DNA of 64,000 bases from a candidate division FCPU426 bacterium. GTDB lineage: Bacteria; Oederibacteriota; Muellerivitia; Muellerivitales; Muellerivitaceae. Numbering within the stretch: the stretch's first letter is position 1; each line of letters begins with the position of its first letter. Below are positions 33,398 to 57,630 of this stretch, piece after piece. A program made the position numbers and the translations under genes. The DNA is taken from positions 110,350 to 174,349 of the forward strand of contig CAWKAR010000003.1 in the NCBI GenBank assembly GCA_963847625.1, given 5' to 3'. The notes below the pieces were generated by a model, which did no database searches, was not told the DNA's origin, and saw only the letters and a list, made by a program, of their open reading frames with translations.

Positions 33398-33441
33398 CAA
33401 TTGCTCCCTAATTTCAGACCTCTCAATCGTCGCTCTTTTTC

Positions 33442-33469
33442 TGTCCACGACGGGTCCCCAGAGTGGACA
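33442..33469 (+). repeat. Cassette-boundary site H
   Basis: TGTCCA CGACGGG TCCCC AGAG TGGACA. Confidence 0.85.
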
Positions 33470-34984: not shown

Positions 34985-35229
34985 AAACAGTCAATGTCCG
35001 GGATCTTCAGAAAAAGATAAAAGAATTCGTCGATGCCTCCCAAAAGGACCGTGTGGTATTAACCCGCCATGGCAAGCCGTCAGCCATCCTGGTCGGGGTT
35101 GAGGGTGAAGACTGGGAAACGGTTGTGCAGGAAACCAACGCCGAATTTTGGAATTTAATCCAATCCCGCAGAAAGCAAAAAACCATCCCACTTGCCGTGA
35201 TGAAAACCCGCTTGAAATTGAAAAAATAG
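34981..35229 (+). CDS. Phd/YefM antitoxin
   Basis: VVLTRHGKPSAILVG; ATGA overlap with the toxin gene. Confidence 0.85.
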   Translation: MKTVNVRDLQKKIKEFVDASQKDRVVLTRHGKPSAILVGVEGEDWETVVQETNAEFWNLIQSRRKQKTIPLAVMKTRLKLKK

Positions 35230-35230
35230 T

Positions 35231-35283
35231 TGTCCAATCCCACTGCCATTTGCTGCGGTGCAAATGGCTCCCCGGGTTGGACT
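35231..35283 (+). repeat. Cassette-boundary site I (53-bp variant; right half resembles a tRNA 3' end)
   Basis: TGTCCA ATCCCACTGCCATTTGC TGCGGT GCAAATGGC TCCCC GGGT TGGACT. Confidence 0.75.
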
Positions 35284-35313
35284 CCCTTCGTTTCACTCAG
35301 GGCAAGCTCACCC

Positions 35314-35526
35314 TCAAGGCCGTCCTTTCCATAAAGCTTCCTTTCGGGACCTGTTCCACCCTTTGATCTCGCGTTCCCGGCGAGCCGCATCCCTCGCCGT
35401 TTATACCGTTTCCAAGTAGAGGGCTCGCTCGACACGGTGCTGTCGCAAGCGATGTTGGAGATGGTTGGTTATTCCCGTGTAGTACTTCCCCTGCTTGGCA
35501 ATGATGTAGACATACCATGTTGACAT
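35314..35526 (-). pseudogene. Small GIY-YIG nuclease with an in-frame stop (not in the ORF track)
   Basis: MSTWYVYII..YYTGITNHLQHRLRQH..*TARDAARREREIKGWNRSRKE; TAA at 35401-35403. Confidence 0.8.
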
Positions 35527-35570
35527 GGAAAGGACTACCTTTCGGATCTCGTCCTTCAATAGCCTTTTAA

Positions 35571-36772
35571 CAGGTATCAAACGTTAAAAATCTCCTGGAT
35601 TCCCGCGAGTGGATATCCGTTTCCAAAGAAGGCCTGCAATTGACGCGTCCAAAAGAACTGTTGATGGAATGGGCGGGCAGGTACCGGTATAACGAAGACA
35701 ACCATTTCGAGCGTTTTTACACCCTTAAATCTTACGAGGAGCTGATGGAGGTTTTATCCCGGAATGATTTGGGCTCGCAAATAATCGGTTACACGAATAG
35801 GTTCGCGCTGACAAGTTTCTCGGGATCGAATTTGTTATCCCCTTATATTCGCAGTAAAACCATAAGCTTTTATGTCGATGATATTGATTTTTGGATAGCA
35901 CGAATGGAACTAAAAAGGGTTGAGAGCGGGGAGAATGTGTTCCTAGTGAGGCCCTATGACGAAGGGGTTTACTACGGGTCGAAAAACGAAAAGGGGGTGC
36001 CTGTGGTTTCCCCCATCCAGTTATACTTGGATTTGAAAACCTCAGGCGGGCGCGGTGAGGACGCGGCGGAAAATTTATTGAAGGAAGTTATCGAAAAACA
36101 ATGGCAAATTTAAGCGGTTATTCACAAGAGGTGGTTGAGGCGGCCAAATCGGTACTCATCGAGTGCGCCCATCTATTGGGTGAGTACCGTGAAAATATCG
36201 TTTTAGTGGGCGGCTGGGTGCCGACGCTCATCCTGCCGGACGCCATGGAAAATCATATTGGCAGTACCGACGTTGATTTGGCCTTGGATCACCGGAAACT
36301 CCGGGATGCGGGGTATCAAAAAATCGAGAAACTTCTTTTGGGCGCCGGATATGAAAGGACCGAGAAGCCGTTTCAATACCAGAAAAAAGTGAGGGGAATA
36401 CCAGTTTTCGTTGATCTTCTTGCCGGTGAATATTCAGGCACGGGCAAAAGGCATCGGCATCAAAAAATACAAGGATTGAAAGCCCGTAAGGCGCGCGGTT
36501 GCGATTTGGCGTTTGAAAGCCCAGTTGAAATTACAATGGATGGCACCCTTCCTTCGGGAAGCCAGGATAGGGTTATGATCCGAGTGGCTTCCATTGTGAG
36601 TTTTATCGTTATGAAAGGCATGGCTTTGGCCGGTCGTTTCAAACCCAAGGATGCCTATGACATCTATTTTTGCGTGCTTTATTATCCGGGCGGGTTCAAG
36701 GGTCTTGCCGCCGAGTTTAAAGGTCATGCCGATAACCTATTGGTCAAAGAAGGTTTGGAAAAAATCCGTAAT
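35571..36772 (+). repeat. 1202-bp inverted copy of 290..1491 (3' abiEi plus truncated abiEii)
   Basis: Reverse-complement match with identical ORF translations; junctions read from the sequence. Confidence 0.92.
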
Positions 36773-38476
36773 CCGGAATTTCCCAGATGACCTTCTCTGA
36801 AAACATTGCCGGGTAATTTGTTTCTCATTATATTCCCCCCCCCCGCTTCTTCCACCCGTATCCGGAATTTTCTGGCCCAAGGCCAGCGAAATGAGCCCAA
36901 AAAAGGGTTTCTGTGCCCCAAAAAAGTTGAAAATGACCTTCCAGAAAGCCAATTCTCGTTGTGAACGCACACCTATCCCACGATGGTTGATCCGGTTGAA
37001 GCCATGAAGTGTTCCTGCGGTTATCGCAGTACTGGCGCTCGCGGCCTTACCATCGCCAGTAGCCTTATCCGTCCAAGGATTTCAGCAAACAGGCGTTGGG
37101 TAACCATCACCTCCGCCATCTGGAAAACCACGTACCGCGAATGGCGGATAACGTTAGCTCCGATTTTGATAAGTTTTTCTCGCAACGTCGTCAGCGACCA
37201 ATGCTTCACCAGTTCTGGCAGGGCTAGACGGCGAAGGAAGTTGCCCAAGTTGTAAGCCAGTGCAAATAGTTGCAACCTTACTTGGTTGTCCGCGAAGTCG
37301 TGGCAGCTTAGTCTTGTCCACTTCATCGCGTACTTTCCCTCCTTGATCCATTGCTCAGCCGTACCTCTTCCGTTGTAGAACTTCACCACCTGGGGTGCCG
37401 GTCGTCGCATGTTCGTCACGATGAAACCCACCCTCGGGAAAAGTTCGCCGTTGTGATGCTCAATCTTCGCCACCACGCGGCGGGGTTTGTCCCAGCTGAC
37501 GGCTTGGTATTGGAAGCTGTGATACCGGACAACCGGCTTGTGGGAAGGGCGGCCCACGGGACGGGTCAAAAATGGCTCAATTTCTCTTTGTAGCACGCCA
37601 TTGGCGGGTTGGCGGATCGCATAAAGGTATCCTTCGTCTTCTAGGTACTCGTATAGTTCCTGACGGGCGAAGGCCGCGTCACCCCGGAAAAAACGGCTGA
37701 TGGAAAGACCCCGATAACGGACAACCACTGGTTCAAGAACCGACCGCCACTCGTGGGCGCTGGCCACATTGCCGTTGCGCAACATTGCCCGTTCCAAATC
37801 GCCAAACTGGTTGAAACAAAACAGGGGATGGTAACAGGTACAGCCGAAGTAACCGTTGTACAAGGAACCTTCTTGGTCCCCGTAGGTTTCACTCACGGAG
37901 CTGTCCATGTCGAGAATAATCTGCTGGATGGGCTTTTTTTCATGGACACCATCAATCCATTGGCCAGATAGGTCAATCAGACCGGTCTGGTTCTTCGACT
38001 GGGTGAGAACTTCCGTCTCGAAACGTCCCATCTGGCTGGTGGAGGCAGCTTGTTTTTCCTTGGCCCGTCCTCCGATCACATGCCGCATCGCCGGATCAAC
38101 ACTCAATCGTTCTGCGTCGTTGGTGTCCTCGTAACCGGCTAGGCGGCTGTAGATTGATTGCCGCAAAAGCGCCGTCATCGTATGTTGCGTATTCTTGCCG
38201 GTTCGCCGATCCCTCAGAAGGTTTTCCGTTCTGTCAGTCAAACCAAAGGCTTCATCGAGTTCACGATAGGGAATCAACCCGCCATCGGAAGTGACCTTCG
38301 CGCCATGGAACTCCAGCTTGAGACCAGGATCAAAAACCACCCGAAGAGCGTCTTTTCCCCTTTCACCCATTGCATTCCCCCCTCTCGTGGTCCCCAAAGT
38401 GAAGAAAAACCTTTGTTTGTATGGCCAAACGACGCCTTATTATACTCGAAAGGTAATTTCATCTGGGAAATCCGGG
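36773..38476 (-). mobile_element. IS1380 family insertion sequence
   Basis: IRs CCGGAATTTCCCAGATGA and CCCGGATTTCCCAGATGA (16/18). Confidence 0.9.
37021..38370 (-). CDS. IS1380 transposase
   Basis: TSDGGL, GYEDTND, LDMDSS, RGDAAF, YNGRGTAEQWIKEGK. Confidence 0.93.
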   Translation of the reverse strand: MGERGKDALRVVFDPGLKLEFHGAKVTSDGGLIPYRELDEAFGLTDRTENLLRDRRTGKNTQHTMTALLRQSIYSRLAGYEDTNDAERLSVDPAMRHVIGGRAKEKQAASTSQMGRFETEVLTQSKNQTGLIDLSGQWIDGVHEKKPIQQIILDMDSSVSETYGDQEGSLYNGYFGCTCYHPLFCFNQFGDLERAMLRNGNVASAHEWRSVLEPVVVRYRGLSISRFFRGDAAFARQELYEYLEDEGYLYAIRQPANGVLQREIEPFLTRPVGRPSHKPVVRYHSFQYQAVSWDKPRRVVAKIEHHNGELFPRVGFIVTNMRRPAPQVVKFYNGRGTAEQWIKEGKYAMKWTRLSCHDFADNQVRLQLFALAYNLGNFLRRLALPELVKHWSLTTLREKLIKIGANVIRHSRYVVFQMAEVMVTQRLFAEILGRIRLLAMVRPRAPVLR

Positions 38477-39292
38477 TTTAAATACCATTATTTTACCGTT
38501 TTGGGAAAGATGGCGGGAATTCTTTGAAAATCCGACTCCGACCGGAGGAAAACCCCATTTGAAAGCCAATTTTGAATTTTGAGTTTTAAATTCTAAATTG
38601 TGGTTAGATTTCCGTGCCAATTATCCTTAAGACAGTTAATGAATTTGGTACGGTACAGGCCGCATGAGGCTACCAGCCGAGTGCGAGGGTTGCCGGGGCA
38701 GATTTATATCAAATCTGTACCAGCCTCGCTATTAGTTTTATGGAAGGCCTATGCGTCGAGGCTTCATGCCGACCAACCATAAAACTTAAGGGAGGCCGGT
38801 ATAGTACCGATTTACTTCAATTATCCCGGGCATAGCCCGGGAATAACAAATAGTTGAATCGGCACAAGCCGAGATGCGTTTCTGGTGTGCCGGGCCATCC
38901 ATTAAAAAGCCCGGCCTGGCACGCATTTCGGAAATCCTCAATAATTCAACATTTAACATTGAGAATTTAGAATTGCCGTTCCAGCCCATGCGGGTAGGAC
39001 CCCGGCCTCTGCGGGCAGGGATGTGGGCGGTTTATCCCCCATACCGACGGATGCCGCCGGAAATGTGGGCGGTTTATCTCCCCTACCCGCAAATGACACC
39101 GGGAATGTGGGCGGTTTATCTCCCCTGTCGGCAAATGACACTAGGAATGTGGGCAGTTTATCTCCCCCTACCGGCAAATGACACTAGGAATGTGGGCAGT
39201 TTATCTCCCCCTACCGGCAAATGACACTGGGAATGTGGGCAGTTTATCTCCCCTGTCGGCAGATGACACCGGGAATGTGGGCAGTTTATCTC

Positions 39293-40648
39293 GGTAGTGT
39301 ATTTTTGGGGGGTGTAAAAAGAAGCGGGCGTAACATGGTGTTTGTCTAGAACGCCATATCCTTTTTGTGAAAGGAAGTTACGCCCATGAAGAATATACAC
39401 CTAGCCTTACAGGCCTTGGCAAGAGAGAAAACTCAAGCCTGGGTGAAATCTGTGGTTGGAAGCCGTGAGGTCGGCGAATGGGTAGGAGAAGCCCTGAATC
39501 AACAACTTTCGGAGGCTTTCAACGCCCAGTTGAGGAAAGAACGGGATGAAGCGTTGAATCGCCAGCCATATGAAAGGCAGGAAGGAAGCCGGTATCGCAA
39601 TGGGTTCAAGCGGATCCTAGTTGCTGGATTTCTGGGACCTTTGGTGCTGAAAAAGCCAGTTTTGAGGAAAGGCGGATTTGTTTCGGAAACTCTGACGGCA
39701 TTGAGAGATGGAAGCCAAGCCTTGGTGGGATTTCTGGGAATGAAGTTCTGGCTAAAGGGGGCTTCCACCCGGTCGGTGGCGGCAGGGATAAACGAGGCCT
39801 TTGGAACTAAGTGGACGGCCAATCACATTAGCCAGATGACCAATGCCTTAGAACCTACCCTGGAAGCCTGGGCTAAACGGCTATTACCCACAGGGATTCA
39901 ATACTTGTACTTGGATGCGCTTTACCTGACGGTCAGGCGACAGGAAGCTGGTGTGAAACAGGCTTTGCTGGTGGCTATCGGGGTGGACGGGAACCTGAAG
40001 AGGCATTTTCTGGGGTACTTGGTGGGAGACCGTGAAAGTGAGGCGGCCTGGGAAGCCATGTTGGAAGACTTGTTGAACAGAGGCTTAGACAGGAAAAGCT
40101 TACGAATGGTGGTATCCGACGCCCACGGTGGGATTGTCGCGGCGGTGGAAAATCGTCTTGGGATCCCCCATCAATTATGCTTGGTACACAAGATGGAGAA
40201 CGTCCGGTGTCGAGTGGCCCAGAAGGACAGAAAGGCATTCATGGCGGATTTCAAGGCGGTGTATTGGGCCGAGAGTCGAGAAGAACGCCTTGGTGGCACT
40301 AGGAAGTCTCAAGGCTAAGTGGTCCAAAACCTATCCCAAAGCAGTGGAGATGGCAGAGGAAAAATTCGACTCCTATACGCAGTTTTTCCAGGAAGACCGG
40401 AAGTTTTGGAAGATTACCCGCACCAGCAACCTAATCGAACGGCTTAACGAGGAGTTAAGGAAAAGGCTGAGGCCAGCGGGGATGATGCAGAACGAGCTGG
40501 AGATCGCTAAGTTGGTGTGGGGGGTAACCGAAACCCAACAACAAAATTGGAACAAGACTAAAGTCTACACCTCAAGAAGGGAGGCGGAGGTTCAAGCTGC
40601 TTGATTAAGACGCCCGTGGAAATTTACACCCAAAATATTGACGCAGGG
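39293..40648 (+). mobile_element. IS256 family insertion sequence
   Basis: Ends ..GGGTGTAAA / TTTACACCC..; TSD TTTATCTC at 39285-39292 and 40649-40656. Confidence 0.88.
39386..40604 (+). pseudogene. IS256 (mutator-type) transposase, frameshifted near 40287
   Basis: YLDAL, VSDAHGG, QLCLVH in the first frame; TSNLIERLN in the second. Confidence 0.85.
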
Positions 40649-40930
40649 TTTATCTCCCCCTACCGGCAAATGACACTAGGAATGTGGGCAGTTTATCTCC
40701 CCCTACCGGCAAATGACACTAGGAATGTGGGCAGTTTATCTCCCCCTACCGGCAAATGACACTAGGAATGTGGGCAGTTTATCTCCCCCTACCGGCAAAT
40801 GACACTGGGAATGTGGGCAGTTTATCTCCCCTGCCGACGAGTTATCTCCCTAATGCCGCTGGGTTATCTCCCTAATGCCGCTGGGTTATCTCACATGCCG
40901 CCGGGTTATCCCCTGGTTCCAGGGGGTGCT

Positions 40931-41962
40931 TTATCCTAGCAGTTCGTTCACCTTGGCCATGACCTGGAAAGCGTCCGCCACGTAAACCACGTCCGCCTTG
41001 CCCTGAGCCCAGCCGCAATTGGGGTTCAGGTTGACCGCCCGGCGCTCGTTGATGAACCTCCAGCCCACCGCGTGGGGTTCCTCGCCGTGACAGCAGGTGG
41101 CCAGCCCCTTTTGGTGCCGGGGTGTGGAACCTGTCTGCCCGATCTGGTTCAGGTGGCTCATGAAGGAAAGCACCAAGCCCTCCCCCTTCTGGTCCACGAC
41201 GGATTTACTGCCCCCCAGGGATGCCCGGGTCTTCCCCAGGAAAGCCAGGATGGTCTTCTCAGCCTCGGGGACCTTGGTTTGCCCGTCAGCCTGCTTTTTG
41301 CACCAGCCCGCGCCTGCCACGAACAGCAATTCGGCGTCGGGTTGGATGGTCTGGGTCCCAGACGAGGGGGATTTCTCCCCGGTAACCTTGGTTTTCGTTC
41401 CAGGGGCCGTAAAGGCGATTTTTTCGGAAGCCAGGCTTCCCGACCCGGCATGGGTGGGAAAAGTTCCCACATCCACCGTCAGGAACCAGGGCCTTTGGGC
41501 CCGCTTGATCTGGGCCGACATCCTTTGGCGGTAAAACCACCGGGTGACCAGGGGAGCGCCGGAATCCGCAGCTAACTCCGTAATATGGGTGTCCACCTTC
41601 CCTCCCAGGCGTTGCGCGAGGCCCGCGATGACGCGCTGAATTCGGGAGGAAGCTGGCGCCACCACCAGGGTCGCGCCGGAAACCTTCACCAAGGCCTCGC
41701 AAGCCGCCGCGTCGGTGGCGTACCGGGATTGGTAAAGGGCGCCATCCTCGGCAACCAATGCCTTCTCAAAACCCGCGCCGGCCAGTTGGCCGGCCGCTCC
41801 CGAGGCCTTTTCCCCGAACAAACCAGCGATTAATTTTGCCCCGCCCAAGGCTGAGGCCAGGGTCTTGGCCGCCGTGGCGGCCTCCAGACCGGCTTTCCCG
41901 ATTTTTCCGTCAGCCCCCACCGCCGTCAGTAAAAGAATGGTTTCCATGCTCAACCTCTCCAT
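40931..41962 (-). CDS. etfA: Electron transfer flavoprotein alpha subunit
   Basis: QIGQTG, ADVVYVAD; adjacent to the beta subunit. Confidence 0.8.
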   Translation of the reverse strand: MERLSMETILLLTAVGADGKIGKAGLEAATAAKTLASALGGAKLIAGLFGEKASGAAGQLAGAGFEKALVAEDGALYQSRYATDAAACEALVKVSGATLVVAPASSRIQRVIAGLAQRLGGKVDTHITELAADSGAPLVTRWFYRQRMSAQIKRAQRPWFLTVDVGTFPTHAGSGSLASEKIAFTAPGTKTKVTGEKSPSSGTQTIQPDAELLFVAGAGWCKKQADGQTKVPEAEKTILAFLGKTRASLGGSKSVVDQKGEGLVLSFMSHLNQIGQTGSTPRHQKGLATCCHGEEPHAVGWRFINERRAVNLNPNCGWAQGKADVVYVADAFQVMAKVNELLG

Positions 41963-41965
41963 GAT

Positions 41966-42350
41966 TTAGTATTCTAAATTCATAAAATCTTTCAAAAAAT
42001 TTTGCCACGGATGTACCGATTCACAATAAAACAATAAATGAAATCGGCACTATACCGACCTCTTTATCTACTTTATAGAAGGTCGGCATGCAGGGGATTT
42101 CATTGGATATTAAATACTTTAAAATCTTTGTTTTATTAGACTATCCATTTCCATCCCATCAATCCATGGCTAAGACTTGCTTTGATTTTGCATTAGTATT
42201 CTAAATTCATAAAATCATTTAAATAATTTTGCCACGGATGCATGCGATTCATGGGATTTAATAAACATAAATATTTAAAGCCTTTATTCTTTGGCCAATC
42301 TGAGTGAATCCCCTTAATCCGTGGCTAAGACTTGCTTTGATTTTGCATTA
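41966..42350. repeat. Two tandem AT-rich intergenic palindromic repeat units
   Basis: TTAGTATTCTAAATTCATAAAATC..GCCACGGAT..ATCCRTGGCTAAGACTTGCTTTGATTTTGCA occurs twice. Confidence 0.8.
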
Positions 42351-42374
42351 GAATTCAAAATTTAGAATTTAAAA

Positions 42375-43184
42375 TTATTTTTTCTTGATCCAGTCCACAA
42401 TTTCCCTCGCGATTTGGTCCACCGGCATATCCTTAATTACCTTCGTGTCCCTCTTTTGCTTGGGAAGGTTCACCGATTTGAACTCCAGCCCTTCCCCGGC
42501 CAGTTTCGCGGCCTTGGCCTTTTGCAGGGCCGGCATGAGGTTTTTCATGTTGGCCATCCCCAATTGGGGATTGTTGGGCGGCTCGGCCAGGTTGCCCGTG
42601 GCCCAACCCACCACGGCAGGAGGCCCCTCCAGGATCGATACCTGGTGCTTGCCGCCTTCCACGCGCTCCAGGATTTCCATCGTCCCGTCCGCCTGGACCG
42701 CCACCTGGTCCACGCCCTGGAACTGCTCGGCGATCCCAAGTCTTTCCCCCAGCATCGCCAGGGTGGCTCCCGCCCCGCGGGAAGCCGATTCCCATCCCCC
42801 AAAAAGAAGAAGCCGGGTCTTGTCCAATCCCGGGATGGATTGCACAGCTTCCGCCAGGGCGGCCGAGCATTCGCCCGCGTCCGTAAAACCGCCCGCCGGG
42901 GCGTCCACTGGAACCAGGTCGAAAGGCGCCTTTTGCGCCAGGGCCATCATGGATTGTTGCAGCTTGCCTTTTGGGGCCGCGCTCACCAGCCACACCTTGG
43001 TGCCGGCGTTGGCTTTGGCCATCGCGGCCGCCTCATAGAGGGCGCTGGCCGCCCAGGGGTCCAGGATAGAGGGCAGCATGGCCTCGTTTTTCAGGGCCGG
43101 CCCCGTGGGCCCGGTGATGGGTTCCAGGGTCTGGAGGGGATCCGGCACGAGCCCGCCGCAAACGATGATGTGGAACAAAGCCAT
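42375..43184 (-). CDS. etfB: Electron transfer flavoprotein beta subunit
   Basis: VPDP, LDPW..ALYEA, GGWES; operon context. Confidence 0.8.
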   Translation of the reverse strand: MALFHIIVCGGLVPDPLQTLEPITGPTGPALKNEAMLPSILDPWAASALYEAAAMAKANAGTKVWLVSAAPKGKLQQSMMALAQKAPFDLVPVDAPAGGFTDAGECSAALAEAVQSIPGLDKTRLLLFGGWESASRGAGATLAMLGERLGIAEQFQGVDQVAVQADGTMEILERVEGGKHQVSILEGPPAVVGWATGNLAEPPNNPQLGMANMKNLMPALQKAKAAKLAGEGLEFKSVNLPKQKRDTKVIKDMPVDQIAREIVDWIKKK

Positions 43185-43195
43185 GTCATGCTCCT

Positions 43196-44056
43196 TTAAT
43201 CTTTTATATCCGTCGATAACTTCAAGATGAAATTATTTTTCCCCTTCTTTTTTGCCTTGTACATAAGGCCGTCAGCGTCCCGGATGGCGTCCTTGATGGA
43301 TTGAGGGGCCCTCACATAGGTGACAGCTCCCGCGCTGAACGTCACGTCCCTGTTGCTTTCCCGCATCACATGGTTCAATTTTTCGAAAATCTCCGGAATC
43401 CTGGCTTCCGCCTGGGCCATGGAGAGATCGGGCAGCATCAAGACGAATTCATCCCCCCCGATTCGCGCGCTCAAGTCGTTCTTTCGCAAGTTGGTTTTCA
43501 GGGTATTCCCCACCAAAACCAAGACCTCATCCCCCTCCGCGTGGCCAAGGGTATCGTTGATTTGCTTGAAATTGTCCATGTCGAAATAAACCACCGTGAA
43601 GGGCAGTCCTTTTTGGGCATTGGCCTTCATTTCCTGCCCGGCTTTTTGGAAAAACGTTTGGAAATTGAGGAGACCCGTCAAGCCGTCCCTCTCGGCCATG
43701 TAAGTGACCTTATCCAGGTTTTTATTCAACCGGTCCAGGACAAAGGAAAAAATCAGGAAAAAAACGAGATTGGCGCAACCGTTTAAAAACTCGTTGCTGG
43801 AGAAGCCATGTCCCGAAGGATAAGAGGTCATCCATTCAATGACGGCGATGACGATGGTGCAAAAAAAGGAATAAGCCGCGCCCGCGAGGAAACCCGAATT
43901 CCATACGATTAAGAAAATGGGGACAAGGTGGAAATAGGCAAGATTCAGTTCCGGGCCTGTGATGTAGTCTAAATATTCGTCAAACAGGAACAAGGCCAGG
44001 GCAATGTATAGAATCGTGTATTTAGATTGTTTCTTAACCCAATTCCCGGGACTCAT
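43196..44056 (-). CDS. Membrane-bound diguanylate cyclase
   Basis: N-terminal TM helices, DGLTGL, DMDNFKQIND, GGDEF. Confidence 0.92.
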   Translation of the reverse strand: MSPGNWVKKQSKYTILYIALALFLFDEYLDYITGPELNLAYFHLVPIFLIVWNSGFLAGAAYSFFCTIVIAVIEWMTSYPSGHGFSSNEFLNGCANLVFFLIFSFVLDRLNKNLDKVTYMAERDGLTGLLNFQTFFQKAGQEMKANAQKGLPFTVVYFDMDNFKQINDTLGHAEGDEVLVLVGNTLKTNLRKNDLSARIGGDEFVLMLPDLSMAQAEARIPEIFEKLNHVMRESNRDVTFSAGAVTYVRAPQSIKDAIRDADGLMYKAKKKGKNNFILKLSTDIKD

Positions 44057-44284
44057 GCAAACCTCATTTGAAGCTCAATGATTTTTTGACGTTCGAAATA
44101 CCGGCAATGAGTTTACCAATCTCTATTCCCAAGTGAAATAGGATAAAAAGCGTTTCAAGAATCAATTTTTAGGGTTTAACTGAAAGTAATACGTAATTAT
44201 TTTCATGCATAGCAATCCAAATAAAACAAAATCTAGTGAATAAAGATAAATAAAATCAGGAATTCTTAGGTCTTAAAGGCGTTA

Positions 44285-44480
44285 AGCAAAACCAAGTACT
44301 TAGCCACGGATTCAGGGGATGCATTTAGATTGGGGGAATAAAAGGCTTTAAACGTTTGTTAAATCCCATGAATCCCATGCATGCCAGCCTTCCATAAATC
44401 TAATAAGGTGGCTGGTATCGTACCGATTTCATTAACTGTTTTATTGTGAATCGGCACATCTGTGGCTAAATATTATTTTG
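44285..44480 (-). repeat. Inverted member of the 41966-42350 repeat family
   Basis: Reverse complement shares GCCAC.GATG, CCGATTCACAATAAAACA, AAAGCCTT and ATCCGTGGCTAAG. Confidence 0.75.
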
Positions 44481-44517
44481 GAAAGGTGTGAATTAATGTA
44501 TTTTGCGAATGCTTTGG

Positions 44518-46377: not shown

Positions 46378-46459
46378 TCACTTACTCCCTTACAGGTCTT
46401 TTCCTTTTATTAATTTAATCGCACAATTTTTACCTATACCGCGAGGCAAATCGCCAACA

Positions 46460-46560
46460 GTTTTTCCCCCTTTGAAAAAGGGGGTTAGGGGGTATTAGTT
46501 GTTGCCAAAGGAAAAAGCTAACTTCCCCTCAATCCCCCTCTTTCAGAGGGGGAGATTTTT
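46460..46560. repeat. Paired REP-like palindromes
   Basis: CCCCCTTTGAAAAAGGGGG and TCCCCCTCTTTCAGAGGGGGA. Confidence 0.6.
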
Positions 46561-46586
46561 TTCGCATACCCAAAGTCGTTATCCGC

Positions 46587-48828: not shown

Positions 48829-49064
48829 GGCGTTCTCCCCCTAGTATTCATCCGAAAAAATCGCGCCGAAAAACAGGCTGGGCCATCCTCATTGAAAAAA
48901 CCGGCTGGCAGCAGGCCTCGGTTAAAACCAATTTCGGGAAGCCCCACTGGCGTCTCATGATATTGAAAATTGACTAAATTTCTATGATTTAAATCACCCG
49001 AAAGCAGCCTGTCATCACACCTTTGAAGCCATTCGTCTGAAGTTTTGAGTAAGGGTTGCTCTCC

Positions 49065-50105
49065 TTATTCCAGGACACAATGGCTGACCCGGTTCCGCCC
49101 TTCCTTCTTCGCCTGGTAAAGGGCCTTGTCCACCTGGGCGATGATGGAATCCATGGGAATCTTCCGGTCGATCGGGGTCACCCCGCATCCCAGGCTTAAC
49201 GTGATTTTTAGGATGCCCTTTGGGGTCACGATGGGACTGGATTCCATTGCGGAGCGGATCCTCTCGGCGATGTCCCGGATCAAGGAGTCATCCACCTTCG
49301 GGAAAACCATCAGGAATTCCTCCCCTCCGTACCGGCCCGCCGAGTCGCTGGACCTCAGGCAGGACCTGATCCGGTACGCCGTTTCCAGCAAGACCACATC
49401 CCCGGTGGGATGGCCGAAGGTATCGTTGATGTTCTTGAAATGGTCCAAGTCGGCCATAATGATGCCCACGTTTGATCCCGTCCGGGACGCCTTTTTCCAT
49501 TCCATTTCCAGGATTTCCAGGATGGCGCCCCGGTTCCAAAGGCGGGTCAGGGAATCCACCAGCGCCTGGTTGCGCAGGTGGTTCCTTTCCCGGAGAAGGG
49601 CTTGGTTGAGTTGGTTGACCTGCGCCAAGCCCAATTCAGTGACAGCCAGGGCCGCCAGATCCTTCAAGGACTGAAGGTCCTCTTTTTTGAGCCTCCTCGG
49701 CTTGTAATCCACCAGGCAAAGGTTACCCACGCGGTGGCCCCCGGGGTCGGCCAGGGGATATCCCGCGTAAAACTGGATGTGGGGTTCCCCCGTCACGAAG
49801 GGATTGTCCTTAAAGCGGTCGTCCAACCGGGCATCCGGGACCAGCATGGCTTCCGGGGATAGGATGGCGTGGGCGCAAAAGGATATCTCCCGGGGTATCT
49901 CGGGGGCATCCAGGCCGTGGCGGGCCTTGAACCATACGCGGTTTTCATCCACCAGGGAGATCAGGGCGACCGGCACGTCAAAGAGGCCGGCCGCGAGCCG
50001 GACAATCCGGTCAAACCGTTCCTCGGCGGGAGTGTCCAGCTGGTGAAGGCTTTCCAGTTCCTTAATTCTTGCAGCTTCATCCGGTGGAATAGGAGGTGCA
50101 GTCAT
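49065..50105 (-). CDS. GAF-GGDEF diguanylate cyclase
   Basis: SFCAHAIL, FYAGYPL, GGEEF. Confidence 0.92.
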   Translation of the reverse strand: MTAPPIPPDEAARIKELESLHQLDTPAEERFDRIVRLAAGLFDVPVALISLVDENRVWFKARHGLDAPEIPREISFCAHAILSPEAMLVPDARLDDRFKDNPFVTGEPHIQFYAGYPLADPGGHRVGNLCLVDYKPRRLKKEDLQSLKDLAALAVTELGLAQVNQLNQALLRERNHLRNQALVDSLTRLWNRGAILEILEMEWKKASRTGSNVGIIMADLDHFKNINDTFGHPTGDVVLLETAYRIRSCLRSSDSAGRYGGEEFLMVFPKVDDSLIRDIAERIRSAMESSPIVTPKGILKITLSLGCGVTPIDRKIPMDSIIAQVDKALYQAKKEGRNRVSHCVLE

Positions 50106-50520
50106 GTATTATTCCTGGTAAAAAATTATAATTCTCGGCTCAGAATCTCAGCGGCTCAAATCTATTAGGTTCACATTTAAAATTTTGAGCCAGGTATAAA
50201 GCAGGACTAAAAAAACCGATTCTAATGGGTTTCAGCCCAATGACTCCGGTTCTTGAATGCGGAATATAGGATTATAGGAATATTGATATTAGGGGTTATC
50301 GTTTCAAATAGACAAGGGGGTATGGGTTTTTTTAACTGAACGAAACATACATTTATCCAATATAAACTAAAAAACAGAAAAAATTTTGTTGTCGTTTGAA
50401 TTGTTGGAGAATTTTAGTGCTATTTCAAAGCATAAATTCGGGAAAAACTTGAAAGAAATTTAGGCCGGAAAAAACCATCAACCCGCGTCAAGCTTGGCCC
50501 GTCCATGATTTTTTCAAGCC

Positions 50521-51285
50521 TTAACCGAGCTCCTTCAATAAAACCTCGAAAAATTTTTCGCGGGCTTGCTTTTCCATCCAGGGGGTGTGCCCGCACTTTT
50601 CCAGAAGAATGAATCGGAAATTCTGAAGCGATTTTCCCAATGGTTTTTCCACCCCTTGGGCCGGATGGGGATCGCGGTCCCCGTGGATGGCCACGACGGG
50701 GCAATGGATGAGTTTGGCCTGCATCAATAGCTCCCCGCTTTTTCTCAATTCCGAAGCTTCGCGCCAGACGTCACGGAATAGATCAGGGCGTAGGACCATA
50801 GGCTCGGCGTTCATGGGAAGCGGGTCGTAGTGATCGGAGAGAGACAGGAGTTCACCGTACCGGGCAAAAGAAACCGGGTCTTCCAGGTGTTTCTCGAGGG
50901 ATTCCAATTCCTTTTTTTCCAACCGGCTGAGGCGGCCGAGGCGGTTCTCCCGGATCCGGGGGGCGTATTTCTCCTCGTAAGGCCCGCTGGAAACCAATAG
51001 GAGTTTTTCCACCCACTCCGGGTAACGGGCGGTGAACAGGAAACCGAGCCAGGCGCCCCAGGAATAACCCACCAGGAAAACCGGCTTTCCGGCGCTTTCC
51101 TCCAGGGTGCTTTTCAATTCCTCGATTTGTCCATCCACCGACGGCCGGGTCTGGAAGGGTTCCAATACCCCCCGTCGGGAAGCCAATTCCCTGGCGACCG
51201 GCGCCATTTCCCCCGCCGCGCCGGGTCCGCCGTGCAGGAGGACGGTATGATAGGGAGGGGCCCCGTAAACCCTGCAGTTTTCCAT
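50521..51285 (-). CDS. Alpha/beta hydrolase
   Basis: HGGPG, GYSWG, GDRD, GH. Confidence 0.9.
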   Translation of the reverse strand: MENCRVYGAPPYHTVLLHGGPGAAGEMAPVARELASRRGVLEPFQTRPSVDGQIEELKSTLEESAGKPVFLVGYSWGAWLGFLFTARYPEWVEKLLLVSSGPYEEKYAPRIRENRLGRLSRLEKKELESLEKHLEDPVSFARYGELLSLSDHYDPLPMNAEPMVLRPDLFRDVWREASELRKSGELLMQAKLIHCPVVAIHGDRDPHPAQGVEKPLGKSLQNFRFILLEKCGHTPWMEKQAREKFFEVLLKELG

Positions 51286-51321
51286 GAATCCTTCAATTTC
51301 CGAAAATTCCAGCTGGATTTA

Positions 51322-53196
51322 TCACTTGCCGGCTACCCGGGGTTTTTTATCGAACCAATAACCTGAATAAAAAACCCGGGTCTGGCCGTCCTGCTCCTCG
51401 GCGTGGAGGGTTCCCCCGTCCCCGTAGAAAAGCCCCGGAACCACGGCGTCCTCATCCGACAGGGGAAGGATGGCCACTTTATACTCCACATCCCGGATGT
51501 CGAATGTCTCGAAGGAAACCCTCATGTCCACGGACAGGAAACCGTCCCGTTCCAGGAGGGCGGTCTTTTTGAACTGGACCGGTCCATGGATACCCCCCGC
51601 TTCCCGGTCTTGTCCGGCCTCCAGGGTATAATCCCCCTCCCGGTTTTTCCAGGAATCGGGAATTGGCACCGATTGGAACTTTTCCAGCGGAACGGGAAAA
51701 GGCAATCCCCCGATCACCGCCACGTCCGTATCGCCGATGGTTGAAAAAACGACCGGGTACTGGGGGAAGTCCATGGAGAAAAACAAAAGAAAGTTCAAGT
51801 GCGGCACGAAGGTGTCCTGGGCCACGGGTATCAAGTCCATCGTAAGATGGGCCATCTCCGCGGAAAGCTTGTCACCCTTTTGGGTGATTTTGGTGATTTG
51901 CCCAAAGGCTGAGTAGGTGCCGGCATACCGGCCCAACATTTCCTTAGCCATCGTTATCCTCTTGGGCATGGGGACTTTCTTTTTTTCCGTCTCTTCTTTC
52001 AAACCGTATTTGGCCTTTAACATTTCTTTTATAACGCGGGTGGCCAGGTCCTTTGCCATTTTTTGGGAATCCTCGGAGTTGGAAAGCAGGATCACCCCCA
52101 GCTTCTGCCGGGGAAGAAGGACGATTTGGGAATAGTAAGGCGGATAAGCCCCATCCTTCCAAGCCGTTCCCCCGGAGCCGGGAATATCCCAAAAACTCAG
52201 GTTCCAACCCATTCCCACCTGGAAACCGAAATCCAATGGGTTGCCGGCGTATTGGGGTTCGAACATCGATTGCGTGAGTTTTTTATTAATAAACCCTTTC
52301 GCCGGGTCCGGGTTAAGAAGAGCTTGGGCGAAACGCGCGAGGTCGTTGGCCGTGGAAACCATTCCAGCGGCGGGTACGTCCCTCACATGGAAGGCGGGAA
52401 CGGCTTTATCGCCCCTGTAACCCTGGGCCAAATCCCCTTCTTTTTCAGGATCGTTCACGCAATAGGTGGAATCCATGCCCAAGGGACGCAGCAGGTCGTC
52501 GTCCAACGCCTTTGTGTAATCCTTCTTGGTCTGGATTTCCACCATCCGTCCCAGCAGGGCGTAATCCGTGTAGGAATACCGGTAGAGGGTCTGGGGGGGC
52601 GAATAGAGATAGTCCTGTTTTAAATCCTTCAAGAGCTGGGAAAGGCTTGCCGGATTCCTTTGCCAAAGGCCGTTGATAAAAAAGCCCGGAAGCCCCGAAT
52701 GGTTTCCCAGGAGGGATCGAACCGTGATGGGTTTGGTATTCTTGAAACGGTTGTGGATGGAAAAATCAGGAAGGTACTTGCGGATCGGACTGTCCAGCCG
52801 GATCCTTCCTTTTTTGCAAAGATTCAGGATTTCAGCGGCCGTGAATATTTGGGATATCCCGCCAAGGGGATAGGCTGTGTCCCCGTCGGCCAGCACCTTT
52901 TTCTTCTCGTTAGCGTAACCAAACCCCTGGGACCAGACCCATTGATTCCCATCCACTAGGGCCAGGCTCAAACCCTTGACATGGTTCTTATCCATTTCCC
53001 GATGGATATAGGAAGCGAGGTCTTTTTTAACCGGTTCGTAATCCACGCCGGATTCGGCGGTTTGCGGATAGCTTGGCCCAGGTGCCATTAAAAGCAACCC
53101 CAACCCGATCATCTTCACGGTTGATTTCAACCACAACCTCCGAGCAAGGTCTAATTGTGTCATATTCCGGGAAATGAAAAAACCTTGCCCAAACAA
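51322..53196 (-). CDS. Beta-lactamase/serine hydrolase-fold protein with degenerate active site
   Basis: ITVRSLLGNHSGLP, PLGMDST, STANDLARF; SxxK replaced by GISQ. Confidence 0.8.
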   Translation of the reverse strand: MFGQGFFISRNMTQLDLARRLWLKSTVKMIGLGLLLMAPGPSYPQTAESGVDYEPVKKDLASYIHREMDKNHVKGLSLALVDGNQWVWSQGFGYANEKKKVLADGDTAYPLGGISQIFTAAEILNLCKKGRIRLDSPIRKYLPDFSIHNRFKNTKPITVRSLLGNHSGLPGFFINGLWQRNPASLSQLLKDLKQDYLYSPPQTLYRYSYTDYALLGRMVEIQTKKDYTKALDDDLLRPLGMDSTYCVNDPEKEGDLAQGYRGDKAVPAFHVRDVPAAGMVSTANDLARFAQALLNPDPAKGFINKKLTQSMFEPQYAGNPLDFGFQVGMGWNLSFWDIPGSGGTAWKDGAYPPYYSQIVLLPRQKLGVILLSNSEDSQKMAKDLATRVIKEMLKAKYGLKEETEKKKVPMPKRITMAKEMLGRYAGTYSAFGQITKITQKGDKLSAEMAHLTMDLIPVAQDTFVPHLNFLLFFSMDFPQYPVVFSTIGDTDVAVIGGLPFPVPLEKFQSVPIPDSWKNREGDYTLEAGQDREAGGIHGPVQFKKTALLERDGFLSVDMRVSFETFDIRDVEYKVAILPLSDEDAVVPGLFYGDGGTLHAEEQDGQTRVFYSGYWFDKKPRVAGK

Positions 53197-53518
53197 TTAA
53201 TTGCTATTCCGCGATCTCATGCGTTTGGTTCCCGACAAAATTACAGATAGCATGACAAGTTTTCACAAAGTTTAACCGGTTTTTTATGGTTATGCATCCC
53301 GGCAATACTTTTAAAAGCCCGAATTATTCAGAAGATTTTAATAATGTTTACGGGCCAGAATTTGGTATTTTGCCCTTATCAAAAATAAACCATATCTGCT
53401 ATTCTTAACCCCCGCGTTTCTGGCGGATACGGCTAAACGACATAAGGCCCTTCAAGGTTTAACAGATTCACTTGCCGGCGAATATTAATCTGGAAGAAAT
53501 TATTTTTGGAGGTTTACG

Positions 53519-54160
53519 GTGGAACGAGTATGTATCTTTATCGACGGAAGCGGCTTTTACTTCGCTTTGAAGCGGAATAACCGCTTATCCCGCTTGGATT
53601 ATTTTGAGCTCTCCCAAGCCCTCGTGGGGCCGGATCGGAACCTCGTCAGGACCTATTACTACAATTCGGCGCATGACCCCGTTTTGTCCCCCGACCAATG
53701 GAAAGTCCAGCAGCCCTTCTGGGAATCCCTTCTCCGGACGCCTTATTTGGACCTTCGGTTGGGGCGTTTGGTGCCAACCCACGAGGGGGGGTTCAAGGAA
53801 AAGGGCGTCAATGTGAGGCTGGTATCCGATCTTTTATACTACGGGGCCAGAAATCTCTACGAGACAGCCATCATTATCACCGAGGATGTGGATTTCGCCC
53901 AGGCGTTGAACCAATTGAAGGAAATGGGACGGCACGTGGAATTATGCCTTTTCCCCGATATCCAGCCCCGGGAGTTGATCCAGTCGGCGGATACAATCAT
54001 CCCCTTGGAGGATGTTCTGTCGATGTATAACGCCAAAATTTTCCCGGTAGTCACCGAAGATAACATGGGCAATAGGAACGAGGACGCCCATTCACTGAAA
54101 AAACGGGAATCAAAATCCGGCCTTCCGAATAACCTCAAGGAAAAATTCAAACAACCCTGA
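53519..54160 (+). CDS. NYN/LabA (DUF88) domain protein
   Basis: IFIDG, RTYYY, KEKGV, DVDF..G. Confidence 0.82.
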   Translation: MERVCIFIDGSGFYFALKRNNRLSRLDYFELSQALVGPDRNLVRTYYYNSAHDPVLSPDQWKVQQPFWESLLRTPYLDLRLGRLVPTHEGGFKEKGVNVRLVSDLLYYGARNLYETAIIITEDVDFAQALNQLKEMGRHVELCLFPDIQPRELIQSADTIIPLEDVLSMYNAKIFPVVTEDNMGNRNEDAHSLKKRESKSGLPNNLKEKFKQP

Positions 54161-54257
54161 ACCGCTAAGCGATACGGAAGGGCCATCTCAAAAAAATTCC
54201 CGGTTCCGTAGGGAATTTCATCCGCCTAGGATTGGGAAATTGAATTCTTCCTAACCG

Positions 54258-55538
54258 CTAATGTTTCCCCGATACCGGCGAAAGCATCCGATCTATCTCA
54301 TCCGCCATCTTCGAAAGTTGGCTCATTTGGTCCGGGGTAACCCCCTTCATATGGTTTAACGCCAAGTCTTTCGCCAAGGTTTGGCTTAATACCTTCCGTT
54401 TATCCGAAACTTTTTTCATGTCCGCGTTGGAAATCTTTTTCGAAATGTTAGCCTTGAATAACCGGTCGTTTTGACCCTTTATCCTGGTGTTCAACTTTTC
54501 CGCACTTACCAACTTGGGCTGGGCCGCTGGATTGGCCGCCTGTTTTGCCGTCGGTTTTACGGCTGGGGGTGTTTTCACCTTAGCCGTAATTCCCAAAATA
54601 CCAGTGGAAGGTTTGACTGGATTTCCCGCCTGGGGAATCAAGGCAGGGGCGGGTTGGGCGGGCACGTTTGCCGGTTTTTCCAATACCGGTTTTTGCGAGG
54701 CCTGCGGGCCGCCGGGGGCGTTCTGAGCCGGGTTGGCCGCCGCCACCCCCGGATTGTTGGAGGTTGGAGAGCCGAAGTTGCCAGGCCGCGCTGAATAATG
54801 CCGCTTGAAATCGTTTGGGCCGTTACCCCAAGCAGGGTTATTTTTATTGAAAGACTGGTTTCCATAAATCCCCTGGTGAATGGCCTTATTATTGGAAACC
54901 ACCATCCGGCGTAATTGGATCATTTGGTCCTTGCTCAGGTCCATTCGCCTGTTTTGACTGTAATAGTTTTGCTCGGTGTTATAGACAACATTGATCTGGA
55001 TCCTCATGGACTGGGCCTGATCCTGGGTTATTTGGTTGGATTGGGCCGCCGTGTTAACGGCGGTTTGCTGTTGGTACAAATCCTGGTGCAGCTTGGATAT
55101 AAACATGTACCTGTCATTGGGTGATCCGTAATCATAATTCCATCCCCCCTGGAAGCCTTGAATCCAAGCTTCACGGCGCGCGATGGCGTCGCTGATCGCC
55201 TGGCCGTTGTCATCCAGCATGGCATTCAGGTTGGTGGTTTGTCCGTAATTCAGGTCCTGTCCGCCGTTTTGGGCCATATCATTCGAAGACATTCTCCGGA
55301 CCATTTCGTCGTTTTCAGCCAAGCCTTCCGCTGAATATTGATCCAAGTTGCCGCTTTGCAAAGCCCCGTCGATCCGGGTGATTTGCTGGCGGACACGAAG
55401 TTCGATCTGCGCCGCGTTGGGATTAGGGGGTGGTGCTACTTCATTGCTCTGGACAAATCGGATGGTACAGCCTGTTTGAAACAGCCCAAAAAACAAGGTG
55501 GAAACGGTGATCCACAAAATCTGGTATTTGAATTTCAT
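54258..55538 (-). CDS. Hypothetical lipoprotein
   Basis: Lipobox-like QTGC; Q/N-rich helical segments and Pro/Ala linker. Confidence 0.6.
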   Translation of the reverse strand: MKFKYQILWITVSTLFFGLFQTGCTIRFVQSNEVAPPPNPNAAQIELRVRQQITRIDGALQSGNLDQYSAEGLAENDEMVRRMSSNDMAQNGGQDLNYGQTTNLNAMLDDNGQAISDAIARREAWIQGFQGGWNYDYGSPNDRYMFISKLHQDLYQQQTAVNTAAQSNQITQDQAQSMRIQINVVYNTEQNYYSQNRRMDLSKDQMIQLRRMVVSNNKAIHQGIYGNQSFNKNNPAWGNGPNDFKRHYSARPGNFGSPTSNNPGVAAANPAQNAPGGPQASQKPVLEKPANVPAQPAPALIPQAGNPVKPSTGILGITAKVKTPPAVKPTAKQAANPAAQPKLVSAEKLNTRIKGQNDRLFKANISKKISNADMKKVSDKRKVLSQTLAKDLALNHMKGVTPDQMSQLSKMADEIDRMLSPVSGKH

Positions 55539-55866
55539 GCGCTAGCTCCTCTGAATGTTTTCGACTTATCCACAATATTCAGCTTATCCACATTTTTCAT
55601 CAGCAGATAGGTTTTACGGTTTCCTAAACCGCGTAAACCCGTTGCCAGGAGCATTTTAAGGTTAAAAGCAAAACCTAACTAGGGCAATCATGTTTAAAAA
55701 CTGTAATAACATTCAAATATATGCTTAATGAATAAGCTCACGTACAGAAGGGGTAAAACTTGTGGAAATGGATTAAAACTCAGTTTTACCTTGAAACTTG
55801 GGTATTGGTGGGGATTAAAGCGATAAGACAGGTAGTTTGTAAAAATAGAAGCATTCGATCAGGATA

Positions 55867-56445
55867 TTATTCCACCTTCAACAGCGTAAAGGAAATTCCA
55901 TTTTTGTTGTACTTAGTAGTCATTCCGAGAATGTTCCCTTCGGAGTCCTTCAGGAAAGTCACCTCGTAATCTGAATGCACTTCCTGGAAATCACCGTCGG
56001 ATTCGGGCAAAAGCCGGATTTCACTGGAACTGCTTCCTAACCTTATGGCCAGCAGACCGTCCCGGACCTCCACATTCACCTGGTCGCCGACTTTTTGTTT
56101 CACTTGGTCAGAAACAACCTCAAAACGGTACTGGCCGACGTAAGGTCGCAATTCCAAGTTGGTCTGCTTGATCTTATTTTCCCGCCGGACCATGACGATA
56201 ACCAGAAGAGCCGCCAGGGCCAGGACAGCGGCCAACCAAACCAGGTTGGGAAATTTTCGCGGTCTTTTTTCCGGTTCCCGGGCCGTTACAACGATTTTCG
56301 GAAGTTCCCTTACCTTTTCCCTGACTCTTAGCCGGCGCGGTTTGAGGACAATGGTTTTTTTTCGATATTTCGGCCTTCCCGCTCCCGCTTTACCCACGAT
56401 TTTTTTAGGCCATGGCCTTGGTGTTTTTTCCTTTTTCTTCTTCAA
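55867..56445 (-). CDS. Hypothetical membrane-anchored protein
   Basis: Basic N-terminus, one TM segment, YVGQY beta-rich C-terminal domain. Confidence 0.55.
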   Translation of the reverse strand: MKKKKEKTPRPWPKKIVGKAGAGRPKYRKKTIVLKPRRLRVREKVRELPKIVVTAREPEKRPRKFPNLVWLAAVLALAALLVIVMVRRENKIKQTNLELRPYVGQYRFEVVSDQVKQKVGDQVNVEVRDGLLAIRLGSSSSEIRLLPESDGDFQEVHSDYEVTFLKDSEGNILGMTTKYNKNGISFTLLKVE

Positions 56446-56498
56446 ACAATCGCTCCTTTAAGTCTCACGAAAGTTCGCCTCGAAACCCTCTTTTCTCA

Positions 56499-56526
56499 CT
56501 TTTGAAACGGCTCCACGGAATGGATG
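56499..56526 (+). repeat. Cassette-boundary half-site K (right half only)
   Basis: CTTTTG AAACGGC TCCAC GGAA TGGATG. Confidence 0.45.
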
Positions 56527-56549
56527 TTTTGCGAAAAGGGCATTTTGAT

Positions 56550-57200
56550 TTACTTATTATTTAAGTCCTTATTTTGTTTTTCCAAGCGGGCTTGAAGTTC
56601 TAAATAGCTTTCATTTCTTTCGGTATCTACCCCACCCCGTTCCGGCACAGTTGTGTCGCTGGCCGCGACTCGGTGGACAATCAATGCTGCGATGATAAAA
56701 CCAGACAAAACGCAAAGAATCGCCACAAAAAGGATGAGACCGTTCCCCTTGTTTTTCCCGCTCCCACCGGTAAAAGCCTTGAAGACGCTTCCCAAAGCCT
56801 TCGGAAAGTTATCGATCGCGTTGAAGGTGTTGTGCATATTGGCATAGGTGTTGTATGCGGCTATCCCCATGTTTTTAACTGAATGGTTCCGATAGGCGTT
56901 GGCCCAACTCTGGAACATGATGGCATAACCCGAGAAAAGAAAACCCGGAACCAACAGCACATAACCCGCCTGGAAAAAAAGACCGGCTTGTTCAGGGGTG
57001 ATCTTACCTGCGGATACTAATACGTTTCCGACGACGATAAGGATGTCCCAACTAAAGCCCAGTGAGGACATCAGGTAACCCATCCAGGCCATGAAACGGT
57101 AGCCGCCCCCCGCATGTTTTGCCTCCACCCAGACTTTGCCCGTCGCATAAGCGTTCCAAATACTGATGGCCAGATTCAACAGCCAAATAAAAACGATCAT
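56550..57200 (-). CDS. Hypothetical membrane protein
   Basis: 216-aa ORF with several TM segments; AGGAG RBS. Confidence 0.65.
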   Translation of the reverse strand: MIVFIWLLNLAISIWNAYATGKVWVEAKHAGGGYRFMAWMGYLMSSLGFSWDILIVVGNVLVSAGKITPEQAGLFFQAGYVLLVPGFLFSGYAIMFQSWANAYRNHSVKNMGIAAYNTYANMHNTFNAIDNFPKALGSVFKAFTGGSGKNKGNGLILFVAILCVLSGFIIAALIVHRVAASDTTVPERGGVDTERNESYLELQARLEKQNKDLNNK

Positions 57201-57300
57201 ACTGTTCTCCTTTTATCCTTAATTTCTAAGATGATCTTTCCTGGCAATCTCGCTTCGGCGCTAAAAGATATCTCACGCACTTGATACTTCGAATTGATGT

Positions 57301-57328
57301 TGTCCAATGCGCCTCCCTGTCATGGATA
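57301..57328 (+). repeat. Cassette-boundary site J
   Basis: TGTCCA ATGCGCC TCCCT GTCA TGGATA. Confidence 0.7.
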
Positions 57329-57334
57329 AGTTTG

Positions 57335-57358
57335 TGGCTGGCCATCCAGGATTCGAAC
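57335..57358 (-). other. tRNA 3'-end fragment (Gln-like), possible att site
   Basis: GTTCGAATCCTGGATGGCCAGCCA = T-loop, acceptor strand and CCA; no 5' half. Confidence 0.7.
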
Positions 57359-57360
57359 TA

Positions 57361-57630
57361 TTAACCCCAATAGGTGGGCGCGCCGAAAAGGTGGAAAAAT
57401 TTTATAATCAAGTACACCGCCGGCAAGACGGCGATACCGATGGCAAGGCCCAGGTAAAAGGCATTGCGCCTTTGTCGGTAGGAGAATCCAGGCCCAGCCA
57501 AAGAGGAAAGGTCATCCTGTACCGCACCCAACCTGGTTTTCAATGCCTCCTCGTCCAGGGAACCCTGCCTGTATTCCTGGGCAAGGGATTCCATCCCCTT
57601 GAAAAACTTGTCATAAACCTCGTCAACCAT
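57361..57630 (-). CDS. Small hypothetical membrane protein
   Basis: AGGAGG RBS and C-terminal TM segment. Confidence 0.55.
   Translation of the reverse strand: MVDEVYDKFFKGMESLAQEYRQGSLDEEALKTRLGAVQDDLSSLAGPGFSYRQRRNAFYLGLAIGIAVLPAVYLIIKFFHLFGAPTYWG

Follow-up and report, generated by a model that had tools for sequence, protein, structure and literature searches.

Palindromic 28-bp cassette sites and their probable descent from a serine integrase of tRNA-Asn

We analysed a 64,000-nucleotide (nt) window (contig C3, positions 110350-174349) of a candidate division FCPU426 bacterial genome (G000, the host genome; completeness 94%), in which two tRNA-like fragments lie at or beside repeated sites, I (35231-35283, + strand) and J (57301-57328, + strand), that separate small genes. 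We are fairly confident that these sites belong to a family of 28-base-pair (bp) palindromes bounding one-gene cassettes, and that they are likely substrates of a shortened serine recombinase derived from an integrase of tRNA-Asn. We also lean towards a wider model, a serine integron, in which a tRNA-Asn integrase without its directionality domains, acting on a symmetric 28-bp site and borne by a mobile element, would shuffle cassettes across arrays and genera. Coordinates without a prefix are positions in the window, C-numbers are contigs, other G-numbers are further genomes and L-numbers are loci.

The 28-bp sites and the cassettes between them

The usual site reads TGTCCACGACGGG-TC-CCCGTCGTGGACA, with 13-bp inverted arms around a central TC and arm pairing that averages 10.6 of 13 positions. 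The host genome holds 74 matches, compared with 1 in the reversed genome, when palindromes read on both strands are included, and 68 sites once duplicates are removed at a slightly different threshold, which puts the family at about 60-70 sites in this genome. The exact pattern was found in 21 of 24 genomes of the family, 1 of 16 other genomes and none of the controls. When sites were located by their outer arms alone, the centre was TC or its complement in 202 of 209. No sequence is conserved more than 14 bp from the site centre, and the sites show no attP/attB pair with zinc-domain motifs at 11-24 bp.

Ten plus-strand sites were located in the window, which fit the sites A-J of the first-pass annotation; one weak minus-strand match, inside a gene, was set aside. 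Sites A (2348-2375), H (33442-33469) and J (central TC at 57314-57315) have the short form, F (32042-32069) has perfect 13-bp inverted arms around TC, and C (11712-11739) and D (14677-14704) lie between B (9759-9786), with a decayed left arm, and E (16722-16738), of which only the right half is present. The long-form sites G (32838-32890) and I carry a 24-25-nt hairpin inserted at the centre, so that site I consists of a left arm, a 25-nt hairpin insert (35242-35266), the centre and a tRNA-Asn-type right arm. Seven sites of wider spacing were listed in the host genome (site I falls below that threshold), and there is one clear case in G022. Long-form hairpins occur at window sites G and I, on host contigs C13, C51 and C63 and at L155; they measure 24-25 nt, with one of 48 nt; changes in their stems compensate each other, and the loop is GCGG or CGGGG.

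Cassettes were surveyed in the host genome and in the array regions of nine other genomes, comprising 373 sites and 286 intervals with a median length of 882 bp (one extra locus beside this sample, L039, has the same sequence as G075:C17). The main open reading frame (ORF) lies on the tRNA-sense strand, opposite the site strand, in 246 of the 286 intervals and on the other strand in 14, with none in 26; the 407 ORFs on the tRNA-sense strand form 315 clusters. Among 26 proteins scanned, the cargo included toxin-antitoxin, GNAT, HAD and NHL proteins as well as unknowns. Cassette F-G, for example, holds a PIN-domain gene with a small upstream partner (32083-32758, minus strand), and three other genomes carry its homologues (83-86%) as cassettes. 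Cassette G-H carries a P-loop (AAA_18-like) gene (32897-33448, minus strand), and cassette H-I carries ParE toxin and Phd/YefM antitoxin genes (34685-35229, plus strand) together with an insertion sequence encoding an HTH_38 and rve transposase (33549-34603, plus strand), which we take to be of IS30 type. A link between site orientation and replication strand was considered and dropped, as the GC skew was weak and mixed and allowed no conclusion.

We found 79 pairs of homologous cassettes, and the homology of many of them stops at the site edges. This is the case for one cassette that is 100% identical between two arrays of G002 and for another shared between genera at 99.2% identity. In the host C61 array, the first cassette matches a G072 cassette at 416 of 416 positions with different neighbours on both sides, the identity starting at T(-1), while four recombinase copies in G072 share the left half-site and diverge from +5 on; this places the crossover within the TCCCC at the centre. 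Of the six central bases, the first two are variable and move with the left neighbour. In one sequencing run (X7), the window's site F is preceded by a left flank that the host genome carries at C19:112817 (one contig, depth 3.6). Judged from these comparisons, the sites are likely live cassette boundaries: symmetric, with recently exchanged neighbours, and not the attL/attR/attP remnants for which they had initially been taken.

The tRNA-like fragments and the short recombinase

Both tRNA-like strings were found in the window where the first-pass annotation had placed them. The right half of site I (35265-35284, minus strand) had been read as an Asn-like tRNA 3′ end, and it indeed copies exactly the final 20 nt of tRNA-Asn(GTT), which the host encodes at C4:10228-10302 (20/20; BLAST against the genome, E = 7e-5), the only tRNA-Asn gene of the genome. 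The match begins inside the T-loop and stops at the start of a short repeat, and the central TC of site I (35269-35270) corresponds to tRNA-Asn positions 71-72 on the opposite strand. Most sites differ from tRNA-Asn, the site consensus agreeing with it at only 13 of 18 positions, and site I is therefore unusually tRNA-like. Together with the tRNA-Asn end, the short repeat (35285-35308, plus strand) forms a module that is present in six copies in the host genome and, between different flanks, in three metagenome runs. Two of the host copies adjoin a proper left arm, so a pure tRNA-Asn half can serve as a right half. The Asn half of site I may derive from the host tRNA or from a tRNA-mimicking integrase arm, and its first source may have been a duplication by a tyrosine integrase. 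As marks of array ends, tRNA-Asn-type arms were rejected, being present in 1 of 57 first, 1 of 57 last and 6 of 223 inner sites.

The second fragment (57335-57358, minus strand), 6 bp past site J, is tRNA-shaped, with a T-loop, C71-A72-G73 (presumably Gln-type by tRNA identity rules) and CCA, but its description as a Gln-like 3′ end is not borne out by any host tRNA, the best matches being Trp (20/24), Gln(CTG) (19/24) and Gln(TTG) (18/24). Its alignment in register with the site is real but weak (10 of 18 consensus positions, -13.5 bits and a TG instead of a TC centre); non-Asn host tRNA ends agree with the consensus at 4-10 of 18 positions. Within two mismatches the fragment recurs in 1 of 98 other genomes of the phylum (G015), as two orphan copies between co-oriented genes, and viral contigs gave 0 matches for it and 0 for the 28-bp site. 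It is likely a leftover half attachment site of a sister, tRNA-Gln-type serine integrase element, and we regard it as a side trace of the same integrase family. A small ORF without a Pfam match (57361-57630, minus strand), likely a cassette gene, ends 2 nt ahead of it.

The candidate enzyme is an array-adjacent serine recombinase that forms 19 clusters of 275-283 amino acids (aa) at 74-100% identity, with the next match at 61%. Its domains are Resolvase and Recombinase; all 19 clusters end ahead of the zinc ribbon and lack the coiled coil as well. Its catalytic-region motif is invariant and the serine motif intact. Serine integrases were the best fold matches of a predicted structure of middling quality (predicted local distance difference test 69, predicted template modelling score 0.44), which was used for fold identity alone. 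The short recombinases form one clade (Shimodaira-Hasegawa approximate likelihood ratio test 99; quick tree). In the host genome the gene lies outside the window, at C61:35485-36315, where it ends 12 nt before the first site of an array, and it would act on the window's sites in trans. Across the short clade, a site lies 12-38 nt past the stop codon at 9 of 11 loci; one of the other two loci is at a contig end and one has its site split by a group II intron. An ArdC gene upstream in three genomes suggests a mobile carrier. In G072, three 5′-truncated copies (L297, L299 and L302) each head their own array, which suggests that array heads have been copied to new loci.

The short recombinase nests among large serine recombinases of tRNA-Gln and tRNA-Asn loci. 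In the best 80 GTDB loci, the tRNA lying antisense over the integrase 3′ end is Gln in 38, Asn in 18 and another in 4, with none in 20, three of which represent the short form; the tRNA's CCA is an in-frame Trp codon in 18/18 Asn and 35/38 Gln cases. Among 120 full-length proteins, the C-terminal tail is W-L-[PL]-x-x-[DGE]-S-N in 59 and of W-L-[GRA] type in 17 (tRNA labels by motif alone), and the right half of the site reads in the same frame as these tails: site J reads LPVMD, and WLPVMD is the tail of a full-length protein that ranks among the closest relatives. Full-length integrases of the host genome end in a 24-nt copy of the tRNA-Asn end and a 23-nt copy of the tRNA-Gln end. The host tRNA-Gln(TTG) holds two nested elements, one with a tyrosine integrase and one with a serine integrase (L030:1624-12630), and both integrase genes read into the tRNA end.

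A profile built from 279 sites of other genomes scores the host tRNA-Asn at +9.9 bits, with its TC on tRNA positions 71-72 and a chance of 2.8e-6 per position. This is the best of 42 host tRNAs, the next reaching -17.9 in the same register and -6.2 anywhere. With tRNA-Asn the sole host tRNA that scores as a site, and kin at tRNA-Gln or tRNA-Asn in 56 of 80 loci, the earlier proposal that the recombinase evolved from targeting tRNA 3′ ends is supported; the short recombinase likely descends, together with its sites, from integrases that inserted at the last bases of tRNA-Asn.

The same proposal allowed for present targeting of tRNA genes, which the data do not support: among 17 intact tRNA-Asn loci in the family, 16 lack a site within 1.5 kb (three at contig ends), and views of 13-38 kb around tRNA-Asn in G001 and G004 contained none. 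The island layout with a tRNA at one end and its duplicate plus an integrase at the other was not found for arrays; it is found in separate full-length elements, at an intact tRNA-Asn in G021 and an intact tRNA-Gln in G001. Because the contig of site I carries neither an integrase nor an intact tRNA-Asn, a reading of this site as an island bounded by a duplicated tRNA end does not fit. The arrays have left the tRNA gene; the earlier lead was largely right about origin and wrong about the present state. A 32-kb stretch of G004 from tRNA-Asn to its duplicate was rejected as an array, having no sites. In several family genomes (L185, L192, L194, L195, L198 and L200), an inverted copy of the T-stem and acceptor lies about 55-60 nt past tRNA-Asn and its terminator.

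Proposed mechanism and competing explanations

In the mechanism that we propose, the crossover point of the ancestor would have been tRNA positions 71-72, within the end of its own gene, and inserts would have piled up at the tRNA-Asn end. After loss of the zinc ribbon and coiled coil, the enzyme would read only the inner 12-13 bp of each half-site and no longer discriminate attP from attB. A cassette circle could then be excised between any two direct sites and re-inserted at another, the asymmetric TC would keep all cassettes in a single orientation, and the arrays would later have become independent of the tRNA gene. According to PMC3783163, the recombinase domain binds half-site positions 1-12 and the zinc domain positions 16-24 in attP; the lack of both domains in the short enzyme matches the conservation of the sites, which reaches no further than 14 bp. 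LI integrase without its coiled coil is described in PMC5499577 as promiscuous in site selection, good at excision and poor at integration.

Several points weigh against this account. That deletion mutant retains its zinc domain and integrates poorly between molecules (PMC5499577), so insertion by an enzyme lacking both domains is an extrapolation, and re-insertion is the least supported step of the mechanism. The short gene was detected in just 7 of the 31 genomes of the family, whole in 5 and broken in 2, set against arrays in 21 of 24, and this query did not find it in G006 (98% complete, 32 sites) or G011 (99%). The full-length integrase at tRNA-Asn in G021 and at host C57:7756 belongs to a different lineage, and the short enzyme shares 27% identity with the G001 counterpart of that integrase. 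The sister branch of the short clade has a support of only 80, in what is a quick tree only. The crossover is narrowed to 5 bp, including the near-invariant TC, and not to 2, and per-position identity over all shared-cassette pairs was too noisy to sharpen it. No cassette circle or joint was seen in four sequencing runs, taken as contigs. The array regions were chosen for having sites, and the cassette counts do not represent a random sample. Recombination of array sites by the short enzyme is, finally, a putative activity, deduced from sequence as likely.

We considered it unlikely that full-length, tRNA-targeting large serine recombinases build the arrays in trans by tandem accretion, with the short gene as a conserved passenger or regulator. 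Such relatives are present in the host genome on C57 and C39, the short gene is absent from most array-bearing genomes, and some site flanks keep an extended arm that reads D-x-F-R-T in frame, like the full-length tails. However, many array-rich genomes (G006, G022) have no Recombinase-domain match at all, conservation stops 14 bp from the site centre, short of where the zinc domain would bind, no full-length locus is followed by an array, and the length and catalytic motif of the short clade are kept over 19 clusters. We give little credence to the sites being 11-6-11 targets of a tyrosine recombinase, of Xer/dif or pdif type, with a tRNA likeness that is incidental or comes from islands duplicating tRNA ends. 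A length of 28 bp suits the 11-6-11 layout, the genome has 18 tyrosine-recombinase matches, many adjoining tRNA ends, and the 20-24-nt Asn copies begin in the T-loop as tyrosine-integrase duplications do; nevertheless, a 6-bp overlap would forbid the observed variation of the first two of six central bases with the left neighbour, no fetched array begins at a tyrosine recombinase gene, and it is a serine recombinase that abuts the first site.

Slightly more doubtful still is that the sites are divergent integron attC sites in clusters lacking integron integrases (CALINs), recombined as folded single strands. One-gene cassettes, toxin-antitoxin cargo, group II introns in sites and the strong hairpins of long-form sites would agree with it. 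Against it, a search of the host genome detected no IntI (TIGR02249) above the cut-off (best 45 bits versus 265), the usual 28-bp form is missing both a second box and a variable loop, and the arms, compared by consensus, lack the GTTRRRY/RYYYAAC core. Least probable is a spread of the sites by other means, as palindromes resembling repetitive extragenic palindromic (REP) elements, with cassettes exchanged by homologous recombination between them. The hairpin inserts with compensating stems, and the position of site I next to a short repeat and a GIY-YIG gene, are what such elements would suggest, but a 28-bp sequence whose arms vary offers little length for homologous exchange, and this reading would not explain why polarity is strict, why each gene boundary has one site and why a recombinase lies adjacent.

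Known systems and neighbouring features

The arrays resemble integrons and CALINs in having a recombinase gene beside a first, degenerate site, co-oriented and exchangeable one-gene cassettes, toxin-antitoxin cargo, arrays without an enzyme and group II introns in sites. In contrast, the enzyme is a serine and not a tyrosine recombinase, the sites are symmetric 28-bp sequences without an attC core, the recombinase gene is convergent with the cassettes where that of integrons is divergent, and no cassette promoter was found in a scan limited to 38400-38700. In G001, G002 and G018, cassette sites contain group II introns, positioned a few bases to the left of the centre (L015:8545-10493; L169:1946-2676 and 5854-6584; L038:6850-8814), a parallel to the introns that target integron attC.

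With the large serine integrases (LI/A118, phiC31, Bxb1 and SPbeta), the short enzyme shares catalytic and recombinase domains, and its sites share inverted arms and an asymmetric central dinucleotide that would set polarity (PMC3783163 and PMC5499577). The differences are the missing zinc ribbon and coiled coil, many sites per genome and one kind of 28-bp site instead of a 40-50-bp attP/attB pair. The Dehalococcoides ssrA islands (PMC3146451) likewise have an att site at a structural RNA 3′ end, overlapped by the end of the serine integrase gene (DsiB), tandem accretion, and modules without their own integrase; they differ as multi-gene islands at one anchor gene, with a 540-aa enzyme and directional repeats. 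The arrays described here have one-gene cassettes, symmetric sites, a 276-aa enzyme and many locations away from a tRNA. Composite SCC (staphylococcal cassette chromosome)/Ccr islands can be grouped with the ssrA islands as a likeness in tandem accretion. The pdif modules of Acinetobacter plasmids are small modules bounded by 28-bp sites, with XerC/D recombination, a 6-bp overlap and the dif sequence; here partners do not share a 6-bp overlap, and neither XerC/D chemistry nor the dif sequence was seen. Tycheposons, according to 10.1101/2020.12.28.424599, mostly use tyrosine integrases.

Cassette arrays served by a serine recombinase were not described anywhere in our literature search, which covered mainly open literature and main texts. 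The general machinery known to shuffle one-gene cassettes is the integron, with its tyrosine enzyme; if our model is true, serine chemistry would independently have given rise to such a system, whose origin could be traced through the source tRNA end, the full-length relatives and the truncation point. The system would also provide a natural test of the integrase-directionality model, through an enzyme without direction domains whose sites are as short as the remaining domain reads. With 276 aa, sites of 28 bp and a polarity code of 2 bp, the recombinase could become a compact engineering tool. Integron finders based on attC and IntI would miss such arrays.

A broken GIY-YIG nuclease gene with an in-frame stop (35297-35580, minus strand) points toward site I. 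A conserved, unstranded 55-nt segment at 38477-38530 has other host copies at C57:9293, C60:122146, C45:10438 and C27:279806, where it lies 20-60 nt past tRNA-Asn-type halves, and the window copy would have been parted from site I by later insertions; around it, no sigma-70 promoter was matched in 38400-38700, the only region scanned. No RNA run was among the listed sequencing runs carrying the sequence, and tRNA-Leu was the sole Rfam match of the window. Directly downstream of this tRNA-Leu(CAA) are two copies of an insertion sequence (HTH_Tnp_1 and rve; 59218-60400 and 63810-64000). Tandem repeats of 42-43 bp at 39018-39295 and 40637-40879 flank a Mutator-family transposase gene, and a perfect 1,202-bp inverted duplicate, part of an AbiEi-type gene pair, links 290-1491 with 35571-36772, 34 kb apart.

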